Part shown: one piece after another, positions 22,348 through 32,026 of the stretch | How positions within the stretch are numbered: the stretch's first letter is position 1 | Layout of the letters: each line of letters begins with the position of its first letter | Source: Microcoleaceae cyanobacterium | GTDB taxonomy: Bacteria > Cyanobacteriota > Cyanobacteriia > Cyanobacteriales > Microcoleaceae | Direction of reading: 5' to 3' | DNA: 40,508 nt | Assembly (NCBI GenBank): GCA_051652765.1 | Contig: JBOFUV010000134.1 | Span: forward strand, 1 to 40,508 | Translations under genes and position numbers: made by a program | The notes under the pieces: model-generated | The model's database searches: none | The model's input: the letters and a program-made list of their open reading frames with translations, nothing else | Told to the model about the DNA's origin: nothing

Positions 22348-23220
22348 CTATGCCTTTGCCTTGCTCTTCTGCTGCTTCTTACCGTACTCTTTCTTAAAGA
22401 CAGCACCAAACCCTAAGGCAGCTCCTGTGCCTAGGATCGTCAGAGGCTCAGGAACGAAGTAGACTCCGTTGATCTCTGCATCTGCAAGGGCAATTTGTTG
22501 AGCAATCACTGAGCCGTCAATAACTCCGTTGCTAATAGACGTTGTAGAGCCGTCGCCCGTTACAAAGAGTGAACCAAACAAACTGGAGTTGTTGCTCAGA
22601 TCCGCTGATCCACCCACTACAAACAGGACGTTATCTGTTAGTGCCCCACCCTCAAGCTTGAAAGAAGAATTATTCAGCTTCAGGTCATCCTCAACCACAA
22701 TCACAAAAGTTGCACCTCGGCCACCCTTGAGAGTCACCTCTGTGTTACTCAAATCTAGACTTCCGCTGAACTGAATCAAATTCCGAAACTGAGTAGAAAG
22801 TCCTGCATCTTGAATGGTGAATGGAGCCGTGATGGATGCACTATTAAAAGTTTGCGTTGCATTGACGGCAAACGCATTGTCCGAAACCGTTTGAGCATCA
22901 CCAACCAACCCTGGCAGTTGGGCTTGGTCTAGAAAGCTGAAATCATCCAGAGTTTGTGAACCTCGAGTGCCTGTAGTGTAGCCTCCAGTGTACAAATCAA
23001 GCACTGAGTAATCCTTGGTTAGCTGATTAGCCAATGGTGTAACGTCTTGCTTGATTGACATCGCCTGAACAGGGGAAGGCAGCAATGTTGCCAACCCAGT
23101 CATTCCTGCTACCGATAGCCAACCTGCAATCAAGCTAGCCGATAAAGACGGCTTTGTTCCGGGCTTCTGAGACATTGACTCAAATATATTCATCGGTAGA
23201 CGACTCCAAAAAAACTGCAT
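22348..23220 (-). CDS. PEP-CTERM sorting-domain surface protein with beta-helix-like domain
   Basis: Signal peptide ending SPVQA; C-terminal VPEPLTILGTGAALGFG plus basic tail; start may be downstream of 23220. Confidence 0.9.
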   Translation of the reverse strand: MQFFWSRLPMNIFESMSQKPGTKPSLSASLIAGWLSVAGMTGLATLLPSPVQAMSIKQDVTPLANQLTKDYSVLDLYTGGYTTGTRGSQTLDDFSFLDQAQLPGLVGDAQTVSDNAFAVNATQTFNSASITAPFTIQDAGLSTQFRNLIQFSGSLDLSNTEVTLKGGRGATFVIVVEDDLKLNNSSFKLEGGALTDNVLFVVGGSADLSNNSSLFGSLFVTGDGSTTSISNGVIDGSVIAQQIALADAEINGVYFVPEPLTILGTGAALGFGAVFKKEYGKKQQKSKAKA

Positions 23221-23589: not shown

Positions 23590-24831
23590 ATGAACATTCG
23601 ATCGACAGACCTTGGCTGTCATGAACATAACTTATCGTTATTCCAGTTTGTGAAGGAACAAGTTAGAGTCAGTTCCCAGAGAAGGATTACTTTTTCAGAA
23701 TACATGAATTGGGTACTGTATCACCCTGAATTCGGTTATTACAATGGGAGTCAGCCAAAAATTGGGGCAGGAGGAGACTTTTTTACATCAGTTCATCTGG
23801 GCCCAGACTTTGGGGAGTTGCTGGCAGAACAATTCGTTGAACTGTGGGAAGTTCTGGGTTGCCCTGAACCTTTTACGCTAGTAGAAATGGGGGCCGGACA
23901 GGGGATACTGGCGGTGGACATCTTGCAGTACTTGCAAGAGAGGCATCCAGAATTTCTGCGCGCTTTGACCTACGGCATTATTGAGCACTCCCCTAGGTTC
24001 CGCACAGAGCAAGCTCACAGGCTTAAGCCTTGGAGTGATTTGGGGTGTTCTATTCAATGGTTGGACTGGGAAGCTATTCCTCAAAATTCAATCACCGGCT
24101 GTTTTTTTTCCAATGAGTTGGTTGATGCTTTTCCGGTTCATCAAGTCGTTTTTGAGAATGGACAATTGCAAGAAGTCTATGTGACTGTAGATTTGGGTTC
24201 AGAAGATGCCAATCCCCAATCACTTCAGTTCGCAGAATTCACAGAAGTGATTGGTGACCTGTCAACGCCTCAACTTTCAGAATACTTCCAATTTTTGGAT
24301 ATTCACTTCAACTCAGAGCTTTACCCTGATCACTATCGAACTGAAGTCAATCTGGCCGCCCTGGATTGGATGACAACGATTGCGAGTAAGTTGCATCAAG
24401 GCTTTGTATTGACAATTGACTACGGTTACTCCGCTCAGAAGTACTATAGCCCGATGCGCCAAGGGGGAACTCTACAATGTTATTTTCAACATCGCTACCA
24501 CAATCATCCTTACCTGAATATTGGATATCAGGATCTGACCGCCCACGTTAACTTTACGGCCTTGGAAAAGCAGGGTGAACGGTGGGGATTGGAAACGGTG
24601 GGGTTTACGCAACAAGCCTTGTTTCTCATGGCTTTGGGGTTGGGCGATCGCCTTGCAACCCTCTCCCAACCTTCAGGATTGTCTCTCTCAGCAGTCCTGC
24701 GCCATCGCGAGGCCCTACACAGCTTGATTAACCCCATGGGATTAGGCAACTTTGGAGTCCTGATCCAAAGCAAAGGGTTGAATCACTTACAACCGATTAA
24801 ACTCAAGGGCTTAAGCGTTCCAGACCCTTAG
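23590..24831 (+). CDS. SAM-dependent methyltransferase, MidA/NDUFAF7 family
   Basis: GDFFTS, VEMGAGQG, SNELVDAFP, TIDYGY, QDLTAHVNF. Confidence 0.92.
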   Translation: MNIRSTDLGCHEHNLSLFQFVKEQVRVSSQRRITFSEYMNWVLYHPEFGYYNGSQPKIGAGGDFFTSVHLGPDFGELLAEQFVELWEVLGCPEPFTLVEMGAGQGILAVDILQYLQERHPEFLRALTYGIIEHSPRFRTEQAHRLKPWSDLGCSIQWLDWEAIPQNSITGCFFSNELVDAFPVHQVVFENGQLQEVYVTVDLGSEDANPQSLQFAEFTEVIGDLSTPQLSEYFQFLDIHFNSELYPDHYRTEVNLAALDWMTTIASKLHQGFVLTIDYGYSAQKYYSPMRQGGTLQCYFQHRYHNHPYLNIGYQDLTAHVNFTALEKQGERWGLETVGFTQQALFLMALGLGDRLATLSQPSGLSLSAVLRHREALHSLINPMGLGNFGVLIQSKGLNHLQPIKLKGLSVPDP

Positions 24832-24892
24832 GTGACATCGTGCTACCCCTGCAAACATTGTTCTGTAAAGTGCTAACAATCGGGTGGGCAAT

Positions 24893-25123
24893 TTACAGTG
24901 TGTCTGGATCAATATTCAATTCTCGGAGTTTGGCTGCTAATTTTTCCTGCTGCTGACGTTCAATTCCAAGGTATTGTCCTGTCTCTGAACCTGTAGGTGG
25001 ATTCACGATGAGTTCTCCGGTGGCGGTGAGTTCGAGTCTGAGATCTCGGTTGGCCCCACACAGGCGATAGAACTGGTCGTCGGTGAGGTGGAGGATGGGG
25101 GTGAGTTTAAGGGTAATGGTCAT
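24893..25123 (-). pseudogene. Uma2-family endonuclease remnant (N-terminus fused to C-terminal tail)
   Basis: LTDDQFYRLCGANRDLRLELTATGELIVNPPTGSETG joined directly to ERQQQEKLAAKLRELNIDPDTL; no PD-(D/E)xK core. Confidence 0.8.
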
Positions 25124-25173
25124 GGTGTCTTGCCCTCTGGGTTATGTAGGGATAACTTGAGTCTATTGCATTC

Positions 25174-25459
25174 TATAGAACCCATTTGGGATCTACTTAA
25201 CCTGCAGCAAGTCTTTTGAGCATGAATCTGACGAAACAAAGATTGACCTTGGCTGTGGCGTGCCCAAGAGTTCTCTCAAAGTTTTTGACTAAACTCTTGC
25301 ATCTTTCTACCCAAGCATTGCTTCTCTCTAGGTCTAGTTCTCTTCTTCTGTGGCAGCAGGGGTTTGACAATTTCCCACTCTTTTTCGGTCAGGCTACTTG
25401 AATACTTCATGCTTTTCCCTTAATTGCTCCTTTTCTCAAGATACCAAATGGGTTCTATA
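25174..25459 (-). mobile_element. Internally deleted IS5-family element (MITE-like)
   Basis: Inverted ends CTATAGAACCCATTTGGGATCT (25173) / AGATACCAAATGGGTTCTATAG (to 25460), 21/22 match, TATA on both flanks; minus strand encodes MKYSSSLTEKEWEIVKPLLPQKKRTRP (ATG 25410) and, in another frame, ERSNAWVERCKSLVKNFERTLGHATAKVNLCFVRFMLKRLAAG* (stop 25197). Confidence 0.88.
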
Positions 25460-26144
25460 GCTGAATTTTGAGCGGGAGCGCAGGTTCAAAGCTCATCGCT
25501 TGTCTTTGTCTGCCATCATCCAGTGTAAGCGAGACCAAGGGTGCCGATCCGACCTCAAATTGTAGTGCATTAGTAAGTGCCCCCAATGCTCCAATATCAA
25601 ATATTGTGCTAGTGATCGTGGCTTGCGTGAGTGTAAGTTGACGAGAACCAATCGGGTGGCATATCGAATCCCGGAGATTTGCATCTCCTTCGACTGCCGC
25701 AGCCCAATCCATCTCGGGCGGAATAACGAAAATGAGAGGCGTTCCGAGATCGGATGCACCTTCGGCAAACAGAATCGTATCGTTTGCCCTCATCCACTCA
25801 GCATGAAAGGGACGAACCGCGAAAGGCAATGCTGCACGAACCTTATCCTTTCGCCGTAGGGCAATTCCAAAGGGGCAAGCACCTGTACTATGCCAACGTG
25901 CGCGCGCAAGCAGATCTGTATTAATCGCCTGCCCAAACTTTGCCGCCTCGTCCTCATCATTGACCCAGATCAACTCAATGTAGGCGTTCTCAAAGGAGAA
26001 AGTGATCGACGCAGTTCCCTGCCCATGATGGACAATGAGTTCCTCATCAAATTGGAAACCAGACTCTATTAGTGTTGTCTTCTCGGGCGCATCTGAAGCT
26101 ACCCAAATGAAGAGATGATCTAGTTCGAAGTGCTCTTCAAGCAT
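25455..26144 (-). CDS. VOC/glyoxalase-like protein (cassette gene)
   Basis: ELDHLFIWV, HHGQGT, FENAYIELIWV, PFGIALR motifs; ATG 26144. Confidence 0.85.
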   Translation of the reverse strand: MLEEHFELDHLFIWVASDAPEKTTLIESGFQFDEELIVHHGQGTASITFSFENAYIELIWVNDEDEAAKFGQAINTDLLARARWHSTGACPFGIALRRKDKVRAALPFAVRPFHAEWMRANDTILFAEGASDLGTPLIFVIPPEMDWAAAVEGDANLRDSICHPIGSRQLTLTQATITSTIFDIGALGALTNALQFEVGSAPLVSLTLDDGRQRQAMSFEPALPLKIQL

Positions 26145-26218
26145 AACCCTACAGCCCTCACCTAGCAAATGTCTGAATAGATCAGCGAAAACTCAGTTAC
26201 AGGCTCTATCAATTAGAC

Positions 26219-26306
26219 GCACAACTTCTCAAATCAGCAGCGGCAGAGGACTTGAAACGCAACACCAACCAACTTTGTTCAGTCCGCTCCAATTGGGTTG
26301 TTATCC
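26219..26306 (-). other. attC-like recombination site 1 (88 bp)
   Basis: Minus strand GGATAAC-AACCCA-ATTGGAGCGGAC...GCCGCTGCTGATT-TGAGAA-GTTGTGC; the most degenerate of the four. Confidence 0.7.
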
Positions 26307-26333
26307 CATGATTAGGTAGGGGTTAGTTGTTGG

Positions 26334-26813
26334 CTAACTGATGCCGTCCGCTGCACGCTCAATCGTGGCAATGTCAATCTTGACCATTTGCATCATCGCC
26401 TCTTGGGCACGTCGAGCACGGCTTGTGTCGGGGTCGTTGAGTAATTCGATCATCCGCTTGGGTACGATCTGCCAAGAAAGTCCCCAACGATCTTTGACCC
26501 ATCCGCATGCGACTTCCGATCCACCATCTGCGAGAGCAGTCCATAGGCGATCAACTTCAGGCTGGTCATCACAATAGATTTGAAACGACACTGCTTCAGT
26601 GAACGGAAACTGAGGGCCGCCGTTTAGCCCCATGTATTGCACACCAGCCAAAGTGAATTCGACAGTCAAGACCTTTCCGGTAGGAACACTCGGCGTGTCA
26701 GCAGGAGACTTCAAAACACGGTCGATTCGCGAATCTGGCAGCAGCGAGACATAGAACTCAGCCGCCGCCTCGGCGTTGCCGTCGAACCACAAACAAGGAA
26801 CGATTTTTTGCAT
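26334..26813 (-). CDS. VOC family PhnB/3-demethylubiquinone-9 methyltransferase-like protein (cassette gene)
   Basis: KIVPCLWFDGNAEAAAEFY, LNGGP, CGWVKDRWGLSWQIVP. Confidence 0.93.
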   Translation of the reverse strand: MQKIVPCLWFDGNAEAAAEFYVSLLPDSRIDRVLKSPADTPSVPTGKVLTVEFTLAGVQYMGLNGGPQFPFTEAVSFQIYCDDQPEVDRLWTALADGGSEVACGWVKDRWGLSWQIVPKRMIELLNDPDTSRARRAQEAMMQMVKIDIATIERAADGIS

Positions 26814-26892
26814 AAAGTCTTCTCCATTCGAGAGGGATAATAGTCAGTCGCCCTTCGGTTCAACTCCACACGGAAACTGTGGTGCGCTGGCA

Positions 26893-26981
26893 AGATAACG
26901 TTGCCCATCACCCGCCGCAGACTACCTCTGCATCATAACCGATTACATTGTGGCGGTCGGTGTGCATGGGCGTTGTTAGAC
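26893..26981 (-). other. attC-like recombination site 2 (89 bp)
   Basis: Minus strand GTCTAAC-AACGCCC-ATGCACACCGACCGCC...GCGGCGGGTGAT-GGGCAAC-GTTATCT; extra-helical base in L''. Confidence 0.88.
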
Positions 26982-27012
26982 AGATTTACGCCTTTAGCTG
27001 TTGACTGTCTGA

Positions 27013-27061
27013 TCTCATGCATTTTCTGCACCGAAGGGGTTAGTGCAGAAAATGCATGAGA
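27013..27061 (-). terminator. Perfect 19-bp-stem hairpin after SDR gene
   Basis: TCTCATGCATTTTCTGCAC / GTGCAGAAAATGCATGAGA. Confidence 0.7.
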
Positions 27062-27079
27062 CTGCTTCTGGACAGCGAC

Positions 27080-27847
27080 TTAAGCTGCTTGCTGGCGATT
27101 GTTAAAGCCATCTCCTCCAGCCGCAATACCACCATCCACCGGGAGGATTACCCCCGTTACCCAGCTTGCATTTGCCAAATATAGAACGGCATCGGCGATA
27201 TCTTTGGGCGTGCCAACCCGACCCAGAGGATGCTGCCGATCTAAATAATTTAATGTTTCTTGGGTCAGTTCACCATGAAGAGGTGTTGGTACAATCCCAG
27301 GCGCGATCGTGTTGATCCGAATCCTATCCTCGGCTAACTCAAAGGATAGGTTTTTCGCCATAGCTGTAATTGCGGCTTTCGCCATAATCGGTGCTGAAGC
27401 AGGAGTTGACTGGCTAGCGTGGAATGTGAGAATCGTCCCAATGTTGATAATTGCGCCGCCATCTCCTTGCAAGCGCATTTGCTTGACGGTTTCCTGAGTG
27501 AGTGCAAAGGTACCGCGCACATAGTTTAGGTATTGGTCTAACTCCCCAATGCTATATTCAGTAAAGGGTTTGACCGCAAAGATGCCAGCATTATTGATGA
27601 GCACATTCACTCGACCAAACCTGGAGATAGCTTCATCAACTAGTTTTGGCGCAAATGCCGGATCGGTAATGTCACCTGCGACAAGATGGATGCGATCGGG
27701 GCGATCGAGTTTTTGAGCCGCCATTTCAAGCTTTGAGAATGTTCTCCCGTTCAGTATCACATTCGCCTGATTGTGCAAAAATGCTTCAGCAATGGCATAA
27801 CCTAAGCCAGTTGCACCGCCCGTGATAATTACAGTCTGAGTTGTCAT
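27080..27847 (-). CDS. SDR-family oxidoreductase (atypical active site)
   Basis: TGGATGLG, NNAG, IAPG, PVDGG; GGAGG RBS before ATG 27847. Confidence 0.93.
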   Translation of the reverse strand: MTTQTVIITGGATGLGYAIAEAFLHNQANVILNGRTFSKLEMAAQKLDRPDRIHLVAGDITDPAFAPKLVDEAISRFGRVNVLINNAGIFAVKPFTEYSIGELDQYLNYVRGTFALTQETVKQMRLQGDGGAIINIGTILTFHASQSTPASAPIMAKAAITAMAKNLSFELAEDRIRINTIAPGIVPTPLHGELTQETLNYLDRQHPLGRVGTPKDIADAVLYLANASWVTGVILPVDGGIAAGGDGFNNRQQAA

Positions 27848-27899
27848 GCTATCTACCTCCAATTCGGTTCAAAGATTTGACTGTCTAGATCGATATTTT

Positions 27900-28115
27900 T
27901 CAATGTAATTGTTGCTGAATGCCTTGCCGAAGTTCTTTCACAGGCACGCCAGCAATTCCCCAATCTTCAGTCGCAACTTCATCAATAACGACAAATGTCG
28001 TTGCGGGTGTCTTATTTAGAACACGCACCAAAAGTTCTGTTACACCTTTGATTAGTTCAGCTTTTTGCTGTGCTGTTGCTCCTTCGCGAGTGATTTTGAT
28101 GTTTACATAGGGCAT
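27900..28115 (-). CDS. 4-oxalocrotonate tautomerase family protein
   Basis: N-terminal Pro (MPYVNIKI), VVIDEV, WGIAG; GGAGG RBS before ATG 28115. Confidence 0.93.
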   Translation of the reverse strand: MPYVNIKITREGATAQQKAELIKGVTELLVRVLNKTPATTFVVIDEVATEDWGIAGVPVKELRQGIQQQLH

Positions 28116-28129
28116 GGTTTGACCTCCCG

Positions 28130-28573
28130 CTAATTTTGGCTTGTTGGCAATATTGCCGTGTCTACATGGTTCGTGTAGTGAAAGACTTTGGTAATAATTT
28201 TCCATTCACCCTCAAGCTGAATGAGGCTGAGGAGATCAATAAAATCTTTGCCTAGCATGGAAGAACGCATTCGGGCGATCGCGGTTACAGCGCCTGCGAA
28301 CTCGATCGATTCGATCAAAAATGAATAGGGTTCACCAGAATCTTCTGGTGAAATTCGTTGCTCAACGATTGGAAAATAGGAATTCATATCCAGATGCAAT
28401 AGTTCTCCACTAGATGCAGTAAAGTATTGAGCACTGGCATGAAACACAGTTGCCAAAAGAGCTGTATCACAACGATATAAAGCGTCGTAATATCGCTTGA
28501 GCAGATCGACGATCGCAGCATATTCAATGCCGTAAACCTGTTTATCCACTGCATAAACTTGTGCTTGATTCAT
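28130..28573 (-). CDS. NTF2/SnoaL-like (putative lumazine-binding) protein
   Basis: YYDALYRCD, VFHASA, FIDLLSLIQLEGEWKIITKVF. Confidence 0.88.
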   Translation of the reverse strand: MNQAQVYAVDKQVYGIEYAAIVDLLKRYYDALYRCDTALLATVFHASAQYFTASSGELLHLDMNSYFPIVEQRISPEDSGEPYSFLIESIEFAGAVTAIARMRSSMLGKDFIDLLSLIQLEGEWKIITKVFHYTNHVDTAILPTSQN

Positions 28574-28670
28574 AGTTCCTCCGCGCTTCGGGTTATCACA
28601 GTTTGAAGCGCATACTTAGACCATAACTCTTCACTTAAAAAAGATAAAGACCGATTTAGTTGAATAACTT

Positions 28671-28685
28671 TTCACCCATAGTGAA
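28671..28685. promoter_or_regulatory. LysR-type operator (T-N11-A palindrome)
   Basis: TTCAC-CCATA-GTGAA in the divergent intergenic region. Confidence 0.65.
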
Positions 28686-28727
28686 TAATACAGGTGGCGC
28701 GATGGATCATTTTGTAAGTGGTTTTCT

Positions 28728-29630
28728 ATGGACAAATTAATTGCTCTGAACGTCTTTAGACGGGTCGTTGAGTTGGAGAGTTTTAGCTGTGCAGCAAACG
28801 CTCTGAACTTATCAAATGCAGCCGTCAGTAAAAATGTCCAGGAACTGGAAAAAGAACTGGGAACCCAGTTGATCCATCGAACCACCAGACGTTTGAACTT
28901 GACTGAAGCCGGACGACTCTATTTTCAGCGAGTTTCCTCGATTCTGGATGAACTGGAAAGTGTTGAAGAAACTGTTGCCGATCTCTCGGTCAAACCCCAT
29001 GGACTGCTTCGCGTGACAGCACCCATGTCTCTGGGTTTAACCCATGTCGCAACAGCGATTTATCAATTTCAATCCATTTATCCAGATATACGGATCGAAC
29101 TCATCCTCAACGATCGTTATGTGGATCTCATTGAGGAGGGATTTGATGTGGGGATCAGAGGGGGCGGATTGGTCAACGATAATAGTCTGGTCTCACATCG
29201 AATCGGCGACATTCAACGAGTCGTTTGTGCATCACCGGCATATCTAAAACAGTATGGTGAACCCCAATCGCCGGAGGATCTAAAGCAGCACCATTGTGTG
29301 GTTTATACGCTAGCGCGATCGCCCCATGAGTGGAGCTTTTGGCGAGGTCATGAAACAGTGTCAGTGCATGTCGATGGATCTTTGAAAGTGAACAATAGCC
29401 TTGCTGCGAGTCAAGCGGCTGTTGCAGGACTCGGTTTGATTTTTTTGCCCATGTTCACAGTCTTAGATGAATTGGAACGTGGGATGCTGAAAACTGTCTT
29501 GCAAGAATGGTCTACGGAACCTTTGACTCTGTATGCGATTTACCCAAAACATCGCCAACACTCTGGAAAACTTCAAGTATTCATAGATTTCATATCGGAG
29601 GCTCTTGCATCAATTGCTGCCAGACTTTAA
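28728..29630 (+). CDS. LysR family transcriptional regulator (CrgA-like)
   Basis: SFSCAANAL...AVSKNVQELEKELGTQLIHRTTRRLNLTEAG HTH; CASPAYL. Confidence 0.96.
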   Translation: MDKLIALNVFRRVVELESFSCAANALNLSNAAVSKNVQELEKELGTQLIHRTTRRLNLTEAGRLYFQRVSSILDELESVEETVADLSVKPHGLLRVTAPMSLGLTHVATAIYQFQSIYPDIRIELILNDRYVDLIEEGFDVGIRGGGLVNDNSLVSHRIGDIQRVVCASPAYLKQYGEPQSPEDLKQHHCVVYTLARSPHEWSFWRGHETVSVHVDGSLKVNNSLAASQAAVAGLGLIFLPMFTVLDELERGMLKTVLQEWSTEPLTLYAIYPKHRQHSGKLQVFIDFISEALASIAARL

Positions 29631-29736
29631 CCTTTAACAAGCCAACAGAAAAGCCAAGATTTACGAATAGTAATAGCTCAGCAAAAACAGTATATCAAGA
29701 TCAATTTTTCACAACCGTACTATTACAAAATCAGCG

Positions 29737-29823
29737 GTCTAACGTTGCCCATCACCCGCCGCAGACGACCTTGAACACTCACAGATAACCTCTAAACGGT
29801 CGAGTGCATTGGGCTTGTTAGCC
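29737..29823 (-). other. attC-like recombination site 3 (87 bp)
   Basis: Minus strand GGCTAAC-AAGCCCA-ATGCACTCGACCG...CGGCGGGTGAT-GGGCAAC-GTTAGAC; right arm near-identical to site 2. Confidence 0.9.
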
Positions 29824-30011
29824 ATCGTCGCCATTTTGCCTTATTTCGCGTTCGACGATCTCCTTGATAAACTCAGGGATTTCCTTGTCAAGACTAGTAG
29901 CACGTTGTCTCAATCGTTCATAATGTGATCAATCACAGCTTTTGGTCTTTTAGCGGTTACTGATTGACAAAGTTGGATAAAATCATCGGGTAACTGCTGA
30001 GAACTGTCCAT
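29818..30011 (-). pseudogene. Internally deleted cassette gene, probably HNH-type restriction endonuclease remnant
   Basis: MDSSQQLPDDFIQLCQSVTAKRPKAVIDHI joined out of frame to YERLRQRATSLDKEIPEFIKEIVEREIRQNGDDG*, stop TAA inside the attC R'' GGCTAAC; family assignment is from memory of similar termini. Confidence 0.55.
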
Positions 30012-30156
30012 GCTTTTCTAGAAGTGTAAGCTGTTGCGGTAAAGTAGCCATTTCCAAAGGAGCAAGAACAAATGACCTTGGCTAGATTACCACAAAGAAA
30101 AGAAGTCTGGCTCCGCTAGAGAATATTGTTCATGAACCATAATCAACAATTGAGAG

Positions 30157-30242
30157 GGATAACGGCTAAGCTCACCGGACACAAACAAACTCTCAAACCC
30201 AACCGACCGACCTCGTTGTTCTGGTGCAGCGCAGTGTTAGCC
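30157..30242 (-). other. attC-like recombination site 4 (86 bp)
   Basis: Minus strand GGCTAAC-ACTGCG-CTGCACCAGAAC...GTCCGGTGAG-CTTAGCC-GTTATCC. Confidence 0.82.
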
Positions 30243-30404
30243 TGCCACACCGTCAACCAAACCCAGGCCAACCTTGACACTCACAGTCTAACCCGAAACC
30301 ACAACTGCCTCAACAAACTGACTTCGCGGTGCTTTGCAACTGGCAAACCTGACCCAAGCCACCGTCCAAACCTATAATCTTCGCGCTTTCACAGATCATC
30401 GTTA

Positions 30405-30588
30405 AGATCAATGCGGGTTTGGTGTGAGATCAACGCGGGTTTGGTGTGAGATCAACGCGGGTTTGGTGTGAGATCAACGCGGGTTTGGTGTGAGATCAAT
30501 GCGGGTTTAGTATGAGATCAATGCGGGTTTGGTGTGAGATCAACGCGGGTTTAGTATGAGATCAACGCGGGTTTAGTATGAGATCAAT
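30405..30588. repeat. 22-bp tandem repeat AGATCAAYGCGGGTTTRGTRTG x8 plus partial
   Basis: Units start at 30405, 30427, 30449, 30471, 30493, 30515, 30537, 30559 and 30581 (partial). Confidence 0.97.
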
Positions 30589-30811
30589 CTGCACATGCTT
30601 TGACATCAACTTGATCTCCTTTCGAGATCAACTTTAACTGTATCCAGAACCAATAGGGGTTTGATGTGATTTACAACTGAGTCTGAAATGCTTACTGAAC
30701 AAGGCATCGACGCAAGTCAGCGAAAGAATCAGGTTCTCAAGGATCTGGGGAGGTGGGTCGATGAGACGATACAAACCAGACCAGTCGATCAAACGCCAAC
30801 TGTCAAACTAA

Positions 30812-30925
30812 CAGGACTTACCCACTTGCCCCCTAAATCCCCCAATGCTAGGGGACTTTAAGAAATCCGGCTCCCCCCAGGATTGGGGCTGGGGGGCCAA
30901 AGAATGCTTAACTGCGTCAGTCCTA
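30812..30925. mobile_element. MITE copy A with 5-bp target duplication ACTAA
   Basis: Ends CAGGACTTACCCA...TGCGTCAGTCCTA; ACTAA at 30807-30811 and 30926-30930; internal C-rich/G-rich palindromes. Confidence 0.85.
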
Positions 30926-30943
30926 ACTAAACAATATTCGAAG

Positions 30944-31912
30944 TCAAGAAATAGAGCTGAACAGATGAGTGGCTTGCCTTAAATCTACATTGCCCCCACT
31001 GATAACGATACCAATGCGGGCTTGAGGTCGAGTCACAATCCCCTGAAGCAAAGCCGCCGCCGCCAAAGCTCCTGTCGGCTCCACGACCAACTTCATCCGT
31101 TCCCAGAGGAAGAGCATTGTCTGCAAAATCTCCTCCTCAGAAACCGTGACCATATCATCCACACAGTTCAGCACAATTGGAAACGTGAGCTTACCCAGAT
31201 AAGGGGTTCTTGCGCCATCAGCAATCGTGTCAGGATTTTCGATGGTTTGCAGAGTTTTGCTGTGATAGGAACGGGTCGCATCATCCGCATTGGTGGGCTC
31301 AACTCCGATCACTTGACAGGTAGGGCATAGGTGGCATGTTGCGATCGCACATCCAGAAAGCAGTCCCCCACCCCCACAACAGACCAGCAAGAGATCAAGA
31401 GGCCCCACCTCCTGAATCAATTCCACTGCCGTTGTTCCCTGGCCAGCAATCACATCGCGATGGTCATAGGGCGGAATTATCGTCAATCCCCGTTCTGTGG
31501 CAATCTGCTGACCCAAGGCTTCCCTGGCAATTTCCGACCGTTCGTAGAGCAAGATCTCGGCCCCATACCCTGCTGTGGCGATCCGTTTCACCTGTGGAGC
31601 ATCCGCAGGCATGACAATCGTTGCCGGAACTCCGAGGATCTGTCCAGCAAGGGCGATCGCCTGAGCATGATTACCAGAGGAAAACGTTAAAATTCCTTGC
31701 TGTTTTTGATCGTTAGAAAGTTGAGAGAGGGCATTGAACGCTCCCCGAAATTTAAAAGAACCTGTCCGCTGAAAATTCTCACATTTGAAAAACACCTCAG
31801 CCTGAGTCAGTTCGTTCACCGTTCGAGAGGTCATGACCGGCGTGCGGCGGGCGTAACCGTTTAAGCGTTTGGCGGCAGCTTCGATATCGGTATAACTGAC
31901 AAGATTCATCAT
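30944..31912 (-). CDS. PLP-dependent threonine/serine dehydratase family (threo-3-hydroxyaspartate ammonia-lyase-like)
   Basis: KCENFQRTGSFKFRGA, SSGNHAQA, GGGGLLSG, VEPTGA, SGGNVD. Confidence 0.93.
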   Translation of the reverse strand: MMNLVSYTDIEAAAKRLNGYARRTPVMTSRTVNELTQAEVFFKCENFQRTGSFKFRGAFNALSQLSNDQKQQGILTFSSGNHAQAIALAGQILGVPATIVMPADAPQVKRIATAGYGAEILLYERSEIAREALGQQIATERGLTIIPPYDHRDVIAGQGTTAVELIQEVGPLDLLLVCCGGGGLLSGCAIATCHLCPTCQVIGVEPTNADDATRSYHSKTLQTIENPDTIADGARTPYLGKLTFPIVLNCVDDMVTVSEEEILQTMLFLWERMKLVVEPTGALAAAALLQGIVTRPQARIGIVISGGNVDLRQATHLFSSIS

Positions 31913-32026
31913 CAGGGCCTACGCACTTGCCCCCTAAATCCCCCAATCCTGGGGGACTTTGAGAAATCTGGCTCCCCCAGTATTGAGGGCTGGGGGGCCA
32001 AAGAATGCTTAACTGCGTCAGTCCTA
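31913..32026. mobile_element. MITE copy B with 5-bp target duplication ATCAT
   Basis: Ends CAGGGCCTACGCA...TGCGTCAGTCCTA; ATCAT at 31908-31912 and 32027-32031; closely similar to copy A. Confidence 0.85.

Follow-up and report, generated by a model that had tools for sequence, protein, structure and literature searches.

A cassette array without an integrase, very probably a detached part of a dispersed pool of attC clusters and attI heads in a cyanobacterial genome

The window analyzed here is the 40,508-nucleotide contig JBOFUV010000134.1 (C134) of assembly GCA_051652765.1 from a Microcoleaceae cyanobacterium, and it carries an array of integron-type gene cassettes separated by four attC sites. 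The assembly (genome G000) comprises 158 contigs and 5.04 Mb, with a completeness of 99.97%. It contains 3231 copies of the octamer GCGATCGC, which we take to be HIP1, and this number fits a cyanobacterium. Two genomes of the same genus, G001 and G002, were used for comparison. In what follows, C-numbers denote contigs, L-numbers extracted loci and X-numbers sequencing runs, which were compared as contigs; in the comparison of run contigs with the array, parts without cover carry no meaning. Statements on published work refer to the parts of each source that were covered.

The array and its attC sites

The features of the array and its two borders are as follows.

25173..25460, no strand: remnant of an insertion sequence (IS), 288 bp, resembling a miniature inverted-repeat transposable element and internally deleted, bounded by terminal inverted repeats of 22 nt; closes off the array at its 3' end
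25455..26224, minus: cassette 5 (the last), glyoxalase-like (VOC) gene at 26168-25455, PF13468; own attC lost
26219..26306, minus: attC 1, R'' GGATAAC, R' GTTGTGC; weakest hairpin of the four
26307..26840, minus: body of cassette 4, PhnB-like VOC gene at 26813-26334, PF06983; cassette start at 26840
26841..26898, minus: 5' remnant of a cassette without an open reading frame (ORF), a recurrent cassette of ~210 bp; 16 aligned copies of the 5' part
26893..26981, minus: attC 2, R'' GTCTAAC, R' GTTATCT
26982..29742, minus: cassette 3, a 2.8-kb module of four genes, named from Pfam and NCBIfam
27862-27080, minus: SDR gene of cassette 3
28205-27900, minus: tautomerase gene of cassette 3
28573-28130, minus: SnoaL/lumazine-binding-like gene of cassette 3
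28728-29630, plus: LysR regulator gene of cassette 3, divergent from the SnoaL/lumazine-binding-like gene
29737..29823, minus: attC 3, R'' GGCTAAC, R' GTTAGAC
29818..30162, minus: cassette 2, a gene remnant retaining residues 1-31 and 212-243 of a 244-aa homologue
30157..30242, minus: attC 4, R'' GGCTAAC, R' GTTATCC
30243..30404, minus: truncated first cassette, 3' end (162 bp), occurring once in the genome; attI, leader and intI stub all absent
30405..30587, no strand: 22-bp tandem repeat, 8.3 copies

The first-pass annotation, which was made from the letters of the window, described four imperfect palindromes of 88, 89, 87 and 86 bp, and these were recovered at the coordinates above in one orientation, the minus strand being the top strand, each with the AAC...GTT core boxes it had reported. 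The unpaired base that it placed in the inner L boxes of every site was found on the R''-side arm of three of the four sites, with a tie at site 26219. Its description of the sites as separating unrelated minus-strand genes holds except for the LysR gene, which is on the plus strand.

An iterated profile seeded with the four window sites detected 83 sites in the genome at E<1e-3 (93 hits in total). These sites fall into 36 clusters, of which 21 contain at least two sites and 35 lie on a single strand, with one mixed. An attC model built from the G000 sites found 78 sites in G000, 0 in G001 and 18 in G002. In an alignment of 45 sites (the four of the window and 41 others) compensatory changes were observed in 9 of the 13 consensus pairs, and the R''/R' core boxes are invariant in 45/45, the sites having been chosen for carrying both boxes. 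Among the 61 full sites, 50 are better fitted by a bulge in the R''-side arm and 1 by a bulge in the R'-side arm, with 10 ties. The bulged base is G on the top strand and C on the bottom strand; in the textbook attC site the bulged G is on the bottom strand. The mean pairwise identity of the family is 57%, and 48 of the 61 full sites measure 86-88 nt. A crude grammar scan, which recovered 2 of the 4 window sites and gave 116 matches in the genome versus 67 in a shuffle, discriminates poorly, and an Rfam scan of the window returned one tRNA and no match to the attC sites.

The joints between cassettes were examined across the genome. Among 37 neighboring pairs (less than 4 kb apart, both heptamers readable), the upstream R' was found to be the perfect complement of the downstream R'' in 17, with 3.2 expected and none of 10000 shuffles reaching 17; inside single sites, perfect R'/R'' complementarity occurs in just 5 of 61. 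The pattern is that expected from cassettes joined by crossover at G|TT, and chimeric attC sites have been described by Cury et al. (10.1101/030866). Judged from sequence, the four window sites are integron attC sites and members of the family of 83, an identification that derives from the family-level evidence (covariation, bulge and end complementarity) and not from single hairpins.

Within the window, the ends of the 2.8-kb cassette match perfectly (start GTTAGAC, R'' GTCTAAC), as the first-pass annotation had it, and the ends of the small cassette match at 6/7 positions. For the PhnB cassette it had paired GTTATCT with GGATAAC; the heptamers are as written, and the assignment is not, because GTTATCT belongs to the ORF-less cassette remnant at 26841-26898. 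With its start at 26840, the PhnB cassette has its own heptamer, GTTATCC, which is the perfect complement of GGATAAC.

The cassettes were also sought elsewhere. The glyoxalase gene was found at two loci of the genome collection (L072 and L073), and at L072, labeled Calothrix sp. NIES-4101 plasmid4, the homologue is 82% identical, has the same G|TT start and is flanked on each side by a truncated attC. Three of 300 genomes of the order, all in other families, have the 2.8-kb module (93, 90 and 83% identity), and at L075 a different attC stands at the same start. Contigs of 4/4 runs cover this module, with pieces ending at 29744 in three. None of 300 other genomes of the phylum yielded DNA of the PhnB cassette; contigs of X2 and X7 cover 26259-26840, and the X2 contig continues into another attC directly past 26840. 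A contig of X6 matches 30210-30395. Three cassettes are thus present elsewhere with the same boundaries, and by these comparisons we count the mobility of the three as established. A joint of 26979 to 29737 in an X1 contig was considered as an excision product and rejected; the two sites share nearly identical halves.

attI heads and the integrase gene

The genome contains 22 copies of a head sequence whose conservation stops at G|TT and gives way to unrelated sequence. Upstream of this site is a leader of ~240 bp that contains up to five GAAANTTTC boxes, and most heads also have the start of intI there. In 12 heads intI is broken at base 63, followed by a 73-bp piece and then by the 22-bp repeat; the fusion was found in none of 40 relatives, which leaves G000 alone among 41 genomes. 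The first cassette is common to just one pair (C50 and C67) among all 22 heads. In 7 of 14 heads, against 1.5 expected, the heptamer that follows matches the first attC's R'' perfectly. Seventeen clusters lie within 6 kb of a head, which at C138 is on the wrong side, and ten clusters, including that of the window, are headless with more than 3 kb of sequence upstream. By its place upstream of and divergent from intI, its G|TT end and its end complementarity, the head is identified as an attI site. At L108 a TTGACA lies 16 nt before the hexamer that precedes the crossover, and a Pc promoter may be built into attI.

Several observations concern the heads themselves. The leaders of L108-L132 contain up to five palindromic units ~40 bp apart. 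R-box-like heptamers stand on both sides of each unit, and the series extends to the start codon of intI; the units are possibly accessory IntI or repressor sites. In L131 a leader unit and an attC are fused directly at G|AT, some 270-190 nt upstream from attI, a possible case of IntI-made loss of intI by attC x leader recombination. At C116:2784, C61:33976 and C144:12679, attC sites lie beyond the 22-bp repeat and read towards it, so that some heads are located within older arrays. The proposal that the head is itself a cassette, with a common outer boundary or a G|TT junction, was dropped, as just one or two heads fit it.

No integrase gene was found in the window, in agreement with the first-pass annotation: the contig has no intI-like match, including the 10 kb of sequence upstream of the array. 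A complete integron was not recovered either, since the window has no attI motif at up to 2 mismatches and the genome has no match to TIGR02249 above the cut-off. An intact IntI query matched N-terminal pieces of the genome up to residue 141, and its C-terminal part gave just two weak matches, to other tyrosine recombinases. The suggestion that an IntI encoded elsewhere could mobilize the array in trans is therefore unsupported in this assembly, in which N-terminal stubs and no IntI C-terminal part were found. An IntI may be located on an unassembled replicon. In G002, the heads carry stubs of 159, 209, 242 and 260 nt as well as a full-length intI with one stop. Three tandem intI copies and stubs lie among cassettes within 50 kb in another genome (G016:C1, 4.45-4.50 Mb; L066-L068).

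The attI motif was then sought in 401 genomes of the order. A 25-letter pattern derived from the heads, at 2 mismatches, matched in 90 of them (reversed control, 3); G000 has 20 matches and any other genome at most four, but the pattern is biased to G000. A near-full intI was found in 36 of the same genomes, with five candidates scored per genome, and many near-full intI genes of the order carry stops. Motif and near-full intI occur together in 12 genomes; 78 of the 90 motif genomes have no near-full intI, and 24 of the 36 genomes with a near-full intI were missed by the pattern. A looser pattern was found 145-233 nt upstream of intI in 16 of 32 near-full loci, one match being spurious and three loci having less than 200 nt upstream. 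Twenty-five motif loci were sampled, and 17 of the 21 with at least 1.4 kb upstream showed no trace of intI; the others gave one near-full intI (with stops), one stub and two distant fragments. Outside G000, 10 of 47 motif loci have a readable first attC within 1.5 kb, and in 9 of these 10 the heptamer match is perfect (1.8 expected). Four doubtful 2-mismatch matches of a second attI pattern in G228 were excluded from the pooled heptamer test. Five nearly closed genomes, picked for several motif matches, show that the scatter does not come from fragmented assembly. In one of them, G207, there are 51 attC sites and 7 motif matches across its chromosome, with all intI copies broken, and G600 has 8 motif matches and one intI fragment. 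Many scattered attI heads without a working integrase seem to be common in cyanobacteria.

Origin of the array

With four co-oriented sites and no intI nearby, the window array is an attC cluster without an integron-integrase (CALIN), the class already suggested by the first-pass annotation. We consider it very probable that this CALIN is a detached part of the dispersed pool of 36 clusters and 22 attI heads. IntI would have joined five cassettes or remnants at G|TT. An attC closes each of them, and its bottom strand, the plus strand of the window, would fold into the recombination hairpin. The array would now be a frozen piece of the genome-wide pool; a rearrangement at the 22-bp repeat most likely cost it the head, and its tail was most likely lost at the IS remnant.

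At one border, the glyoxalase cassette is cut at its stop codon by the IS remnant, at the place where its own attC is expected. The remnant, presumably of the IS5 family, has 11 related matches elsewhere in the genome, and its 57-aa ORF has no Pfam or NCBIfam match. IS-end motifs lie within 3 kb of an attC in 9 of 44 cases (2.0 expected; maximum 8 in 2000 draws). The 22-bp repeat, which has no head in the window, is elsewhere in the genome fused to the intI stub of attI heads, and 10 of its 17 multi-unit loci lie within 3 kb of an attC, with 0.8 expected. Both elements are enriched near arrays, and we infer that the array is a detached fragment bounded by them. The repeat occurs in the window and at 24 other G000 loci in 1-13 copies, with 44-bp variant units and also without heads, and it is low-copy in G001 and G002. 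A head at G002:C34 was rejected as the lost head of the window, since it lies 11 kb from the G002 dehydratase gene with housekeeping genes between. Because the assembly contains no intact intI, the array would be mobile only through an IntI arriving from outside or through homologous recombination.

The heads elsewhere in the genome, with their attI, palindromic leader repeats and a -10-like hexamer, most likely act as docking and expression sites. From the shared break and the different first cassettes we infer that their number rose once intI had been broken, and that an integrase working in trans loaded them. We tentatively extend this to a proposal that falls somewhat short of an even chance: many cyanobacteria may run a distributed integron, in which attI, with its palindromic leader repeats and a built-in -10 promoter, is copied around the chromosome without an integrase and captures and expresses cassettes through IntI in trans. 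Here one broken head would have been amplified at least 12 times and reloaded, and the headless arrays would be both debris and reservoir.

A number of results weigh against these interpretations. The assembly is fragmented into its 158 contigs, a contig end is close to 9 of the headless attC clusters, and just 214 bases precede the head at C68:214 on the upstream side. The attC model was built from the sites of this genome and includes the window sites themselves. In the folding of the bottom strands as DNA, the z-scores of attC 1-4 are +0.6, -2.1, -1.15 and -0.55, so that single hairpins are weak evidence. The module copies L076 and L077 and the glyoxalase copy L073 have no detectable attC, and the genes concerned therefore survive outside arrays as well. 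Identity among the 12 shared-break heads is no more than 68-93%, and two leader types are represented, which speaks against a single recent burst. Directly ahead of the crossover, the -10-like hexamer reads TATAAT in just 8 of the 22 heads and CATAAT in another 4, and the attI search pattern itself included TAAT. The 22-bp repeat of the window faces away from the array, the wrong direction for a simple loss of the head. Finally, the MidA and dehydratase genes have other inner neighbors in both G001 and G002, and the array stands at a break in synteny where no empty site was found. The insertion between these two genes proposed in the first-pass annotation is accordingly unsupported, and any origin given for the window array is putative.

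The main rival to loading in trans is gene conversion among separately decayed integrons. The heads and arrays would then be relics of many separate complete integrons that lost intI in place, the base-63 break having spread by gene conversion or repeat insertion, with no service in trans. We regard this as a serious possibility, on the doubtful side. It is favored by the differing lengths of the G002 stubs beside one full-length gene with a stop, by the tandem intI copies of G016, by the divergence and two leader types of the shared-break heads and by the stops in many near-full intI genes of the order. It would require ~22 acquisitions in one lineage, yet G001 has no attC match; the repeat-stub fusion is confined to G000 among the 41 genomes, and intI has left no trace at the 17 of 21 sampled attI sites noted above. 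Alternatively, the window array may have arisen on the spot and never had a head, a first cassette having entered a genomic GWT (attG) site off-target and others having followed. This route is efficient and has been proposed for small CALINs (10.1101/2022.09.11.507474), and the window has no attI or leader; however, truncation of both outer cassettes has left no G|TT entry junction, joining the flanks does not give a site that the relatives have, and the repeat that marks heads elsewhere adjoins the array. We consider this origin unlikely.

A similarly improbable explanation is that the IS family whose remnant caps the window array carried arrays and heads along as composite units. The excess of IS-end motifs near attC sites points in this direction, as do five repeat loci with a common flank leading towards an IS end, a sixth (C67) having part of it. 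However, the flank is absent from most heads, an IS end is present on just one side of the window array, and the enrichment may reflect survival of IS elements in dispensable DNA. The sites could in principle be an unrelated intergenic repeat, of the repetitive extragenic palindromic (REP) type or a terminator, instead of recombination sites. The weak folding of single sites and the existence of other dispersed palindromic repeats in the genome would agree with this; the chimeric end logic, the one-sided bulge, the junction-exact homologues and the co-orientation of the sites downstream of intI-linked attI sites make it extremely improbable.

The relation of the detached array and its heads to known systems may be summarized briefly. 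Cury et al. (2016; 10.1101/030866) describe CALINs that, like the window array, have at least two co-oriented attC sites, about five in number, and no intI nearby; 38% of the CALINs in that paper have an IS neighbor, as here, and cyanobacteria are among the hosts. In that study the attI search was limited to classes 1-3 and pseudogenes were sought with C-terminal profiles, so the N-terminal stubs and 22 attI heads of G000 would escape it. An attC family of its own, as first suggested, is borne out for the sequences and not for novelty, since a Cyanobacteria-specific attC covariance model has been published (Ghaly et al. 2021, PMC8352920), of which the window sites are probably members. With sedentary chromosomal integrons (PMC9024848, PMC8618304) the genome shares a large, fairly homogeneous attC pool (83 here) and toxin-antitoxin, restriction-modification, GNAT and ORF-less cassettes. 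Unlike them, it has 36 short clusters, 22 attI and no intact intI.

IntI excises cassettes by attC x attC recombination, inserts them by attC x attI recombination and can use CALINs in trans (PMC9024848, PMC9668308), and in Vibrio it can recruit cassettes from transforming DNA (PMC12614218). Integrons typically have one attI near the integrase gene, and attI is poorly described outside class 1 (PMC9024848). Insertions at attG and single attC sites lacking an integron-integrase (SALINs) likewise account for cassettes scattered over chromosomes (10.1101/2022.09.11.507474). In the same work, Loot et al. report no significant rate of attI insertion into genomes, so the attG results do not directly explain scattered attI heads. 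Delta-attI-type cassettes of mobile integrons (PMC12901181) likewise involve extra copies of attI, which can take part in recombination and delimit cassettes; those copies are fragments within clinical arrays, whereas G000 has full heads with leader repeats at many chromosomal places. In Xanthomonas, intI is likewise often inactivated and CALINs lie at several loci, but there is one conserved platform at ilvD, with no multiplied attI heads in the parts of that paper covered (10.1101/2025.06.18.660453).

By itself, the window array is an ordinary CALIN, and cyanobacterial integrons and their attC model are already in print. The unusual part is the head architecture outside the window, for which the present analysis adds the end-complementarity test of attI, the motif census and the shared base-63 break. 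A literature search that took in few subscription papers and no supplements, those of Cury 2016 and Ghaly 2021 being relevant, found no cyanobacterial attI consensus and no multi-head genome without an integrase. The genome bears on the origin of CALINs and on whether they are still alive. Standard tools are blind to attI outside class 1 (PMC9024848), so that an array still in possession of its docking site passes for dead; with a cyanobacterial attI consensus, checked here by cassette-end complementarity, the survival of docking sites in CALINs becomes testable. If capture and expression in trans are true, they would represent a widespread route of gene uptake in cyanobacteria, and the heads would be natural landing pads for engineering.

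Cassette cargo and neighboring features

The 2.8-kb cassette, with its own regulator and three enzymes, exceeds the usual cassette of one or two genes. Expression of the array would come from internal promoters, most plausibly in the divergent LysR module; a promoter scan of 24800-31000 gave 4 sites versus 8.1 in shuffles, which leaves internal promoters unsupported. A perfect 19-bp inverted repeat at 27013-27061, 3' of the SDR gene, is possibly a terminator.

The gene of cassette 2 has its stop codon (29820-29818) inside R'', as was first observed, and is a deletion remnant that has lost residues 32-211 of its 244-aa homologue. This homologue is located behind a D12 methylase gene in another array of the genome and is probably a restriction endonuclease; NCBIfam gave no match for it.

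The ORF-less cassette of ~210 bp is the most repeated cassette of the genome, occurring at 16 places (for example at about 1326-1537 of L104, which is on C21, and at 26841-26898 of the window). At C50 and C67 it stands first behind attI. Its sequence forms hairpins, and several copies are broken up at one TA; a promoter cassette or an RNA cassette is conceivable. The join at 26840 is two bases off a clean insertion at the nearest GTT of this cassette, and three other copies are interrupted at the same spot.

In the other arrays, 79 proteins were scanned, and the cargo includes GNAT, toxin-antitoxin, restriction-modification and glyoxalase genes. An ABC-three-component defense module was found at L096:5052-8570, a type ISP restriction system with a toxin-antitoxin pair inserted in it at L097:1383-5194 and a transpeptidase/beta-lactamase-like gene at L089:753-1622. 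A two-gene cassette encoding ParA-like and Rho_N proteins is the first after attI in G002 (L053:6166-8189); the same cassette lies deep in an array at another locus in G000 (L095:682-2717).

Outside the array, a gene with an ice-binding-like domain lies at 22348-23220 of the window, between the ATP sulfurylase and MidA genes, and G001 has no such ORF there. An 88-bp dispersed palindromic repeat is found on both sides of the dehydratase gene, at 30812-30899 and 31913-32000, and has 29 blast matches genome-wide.

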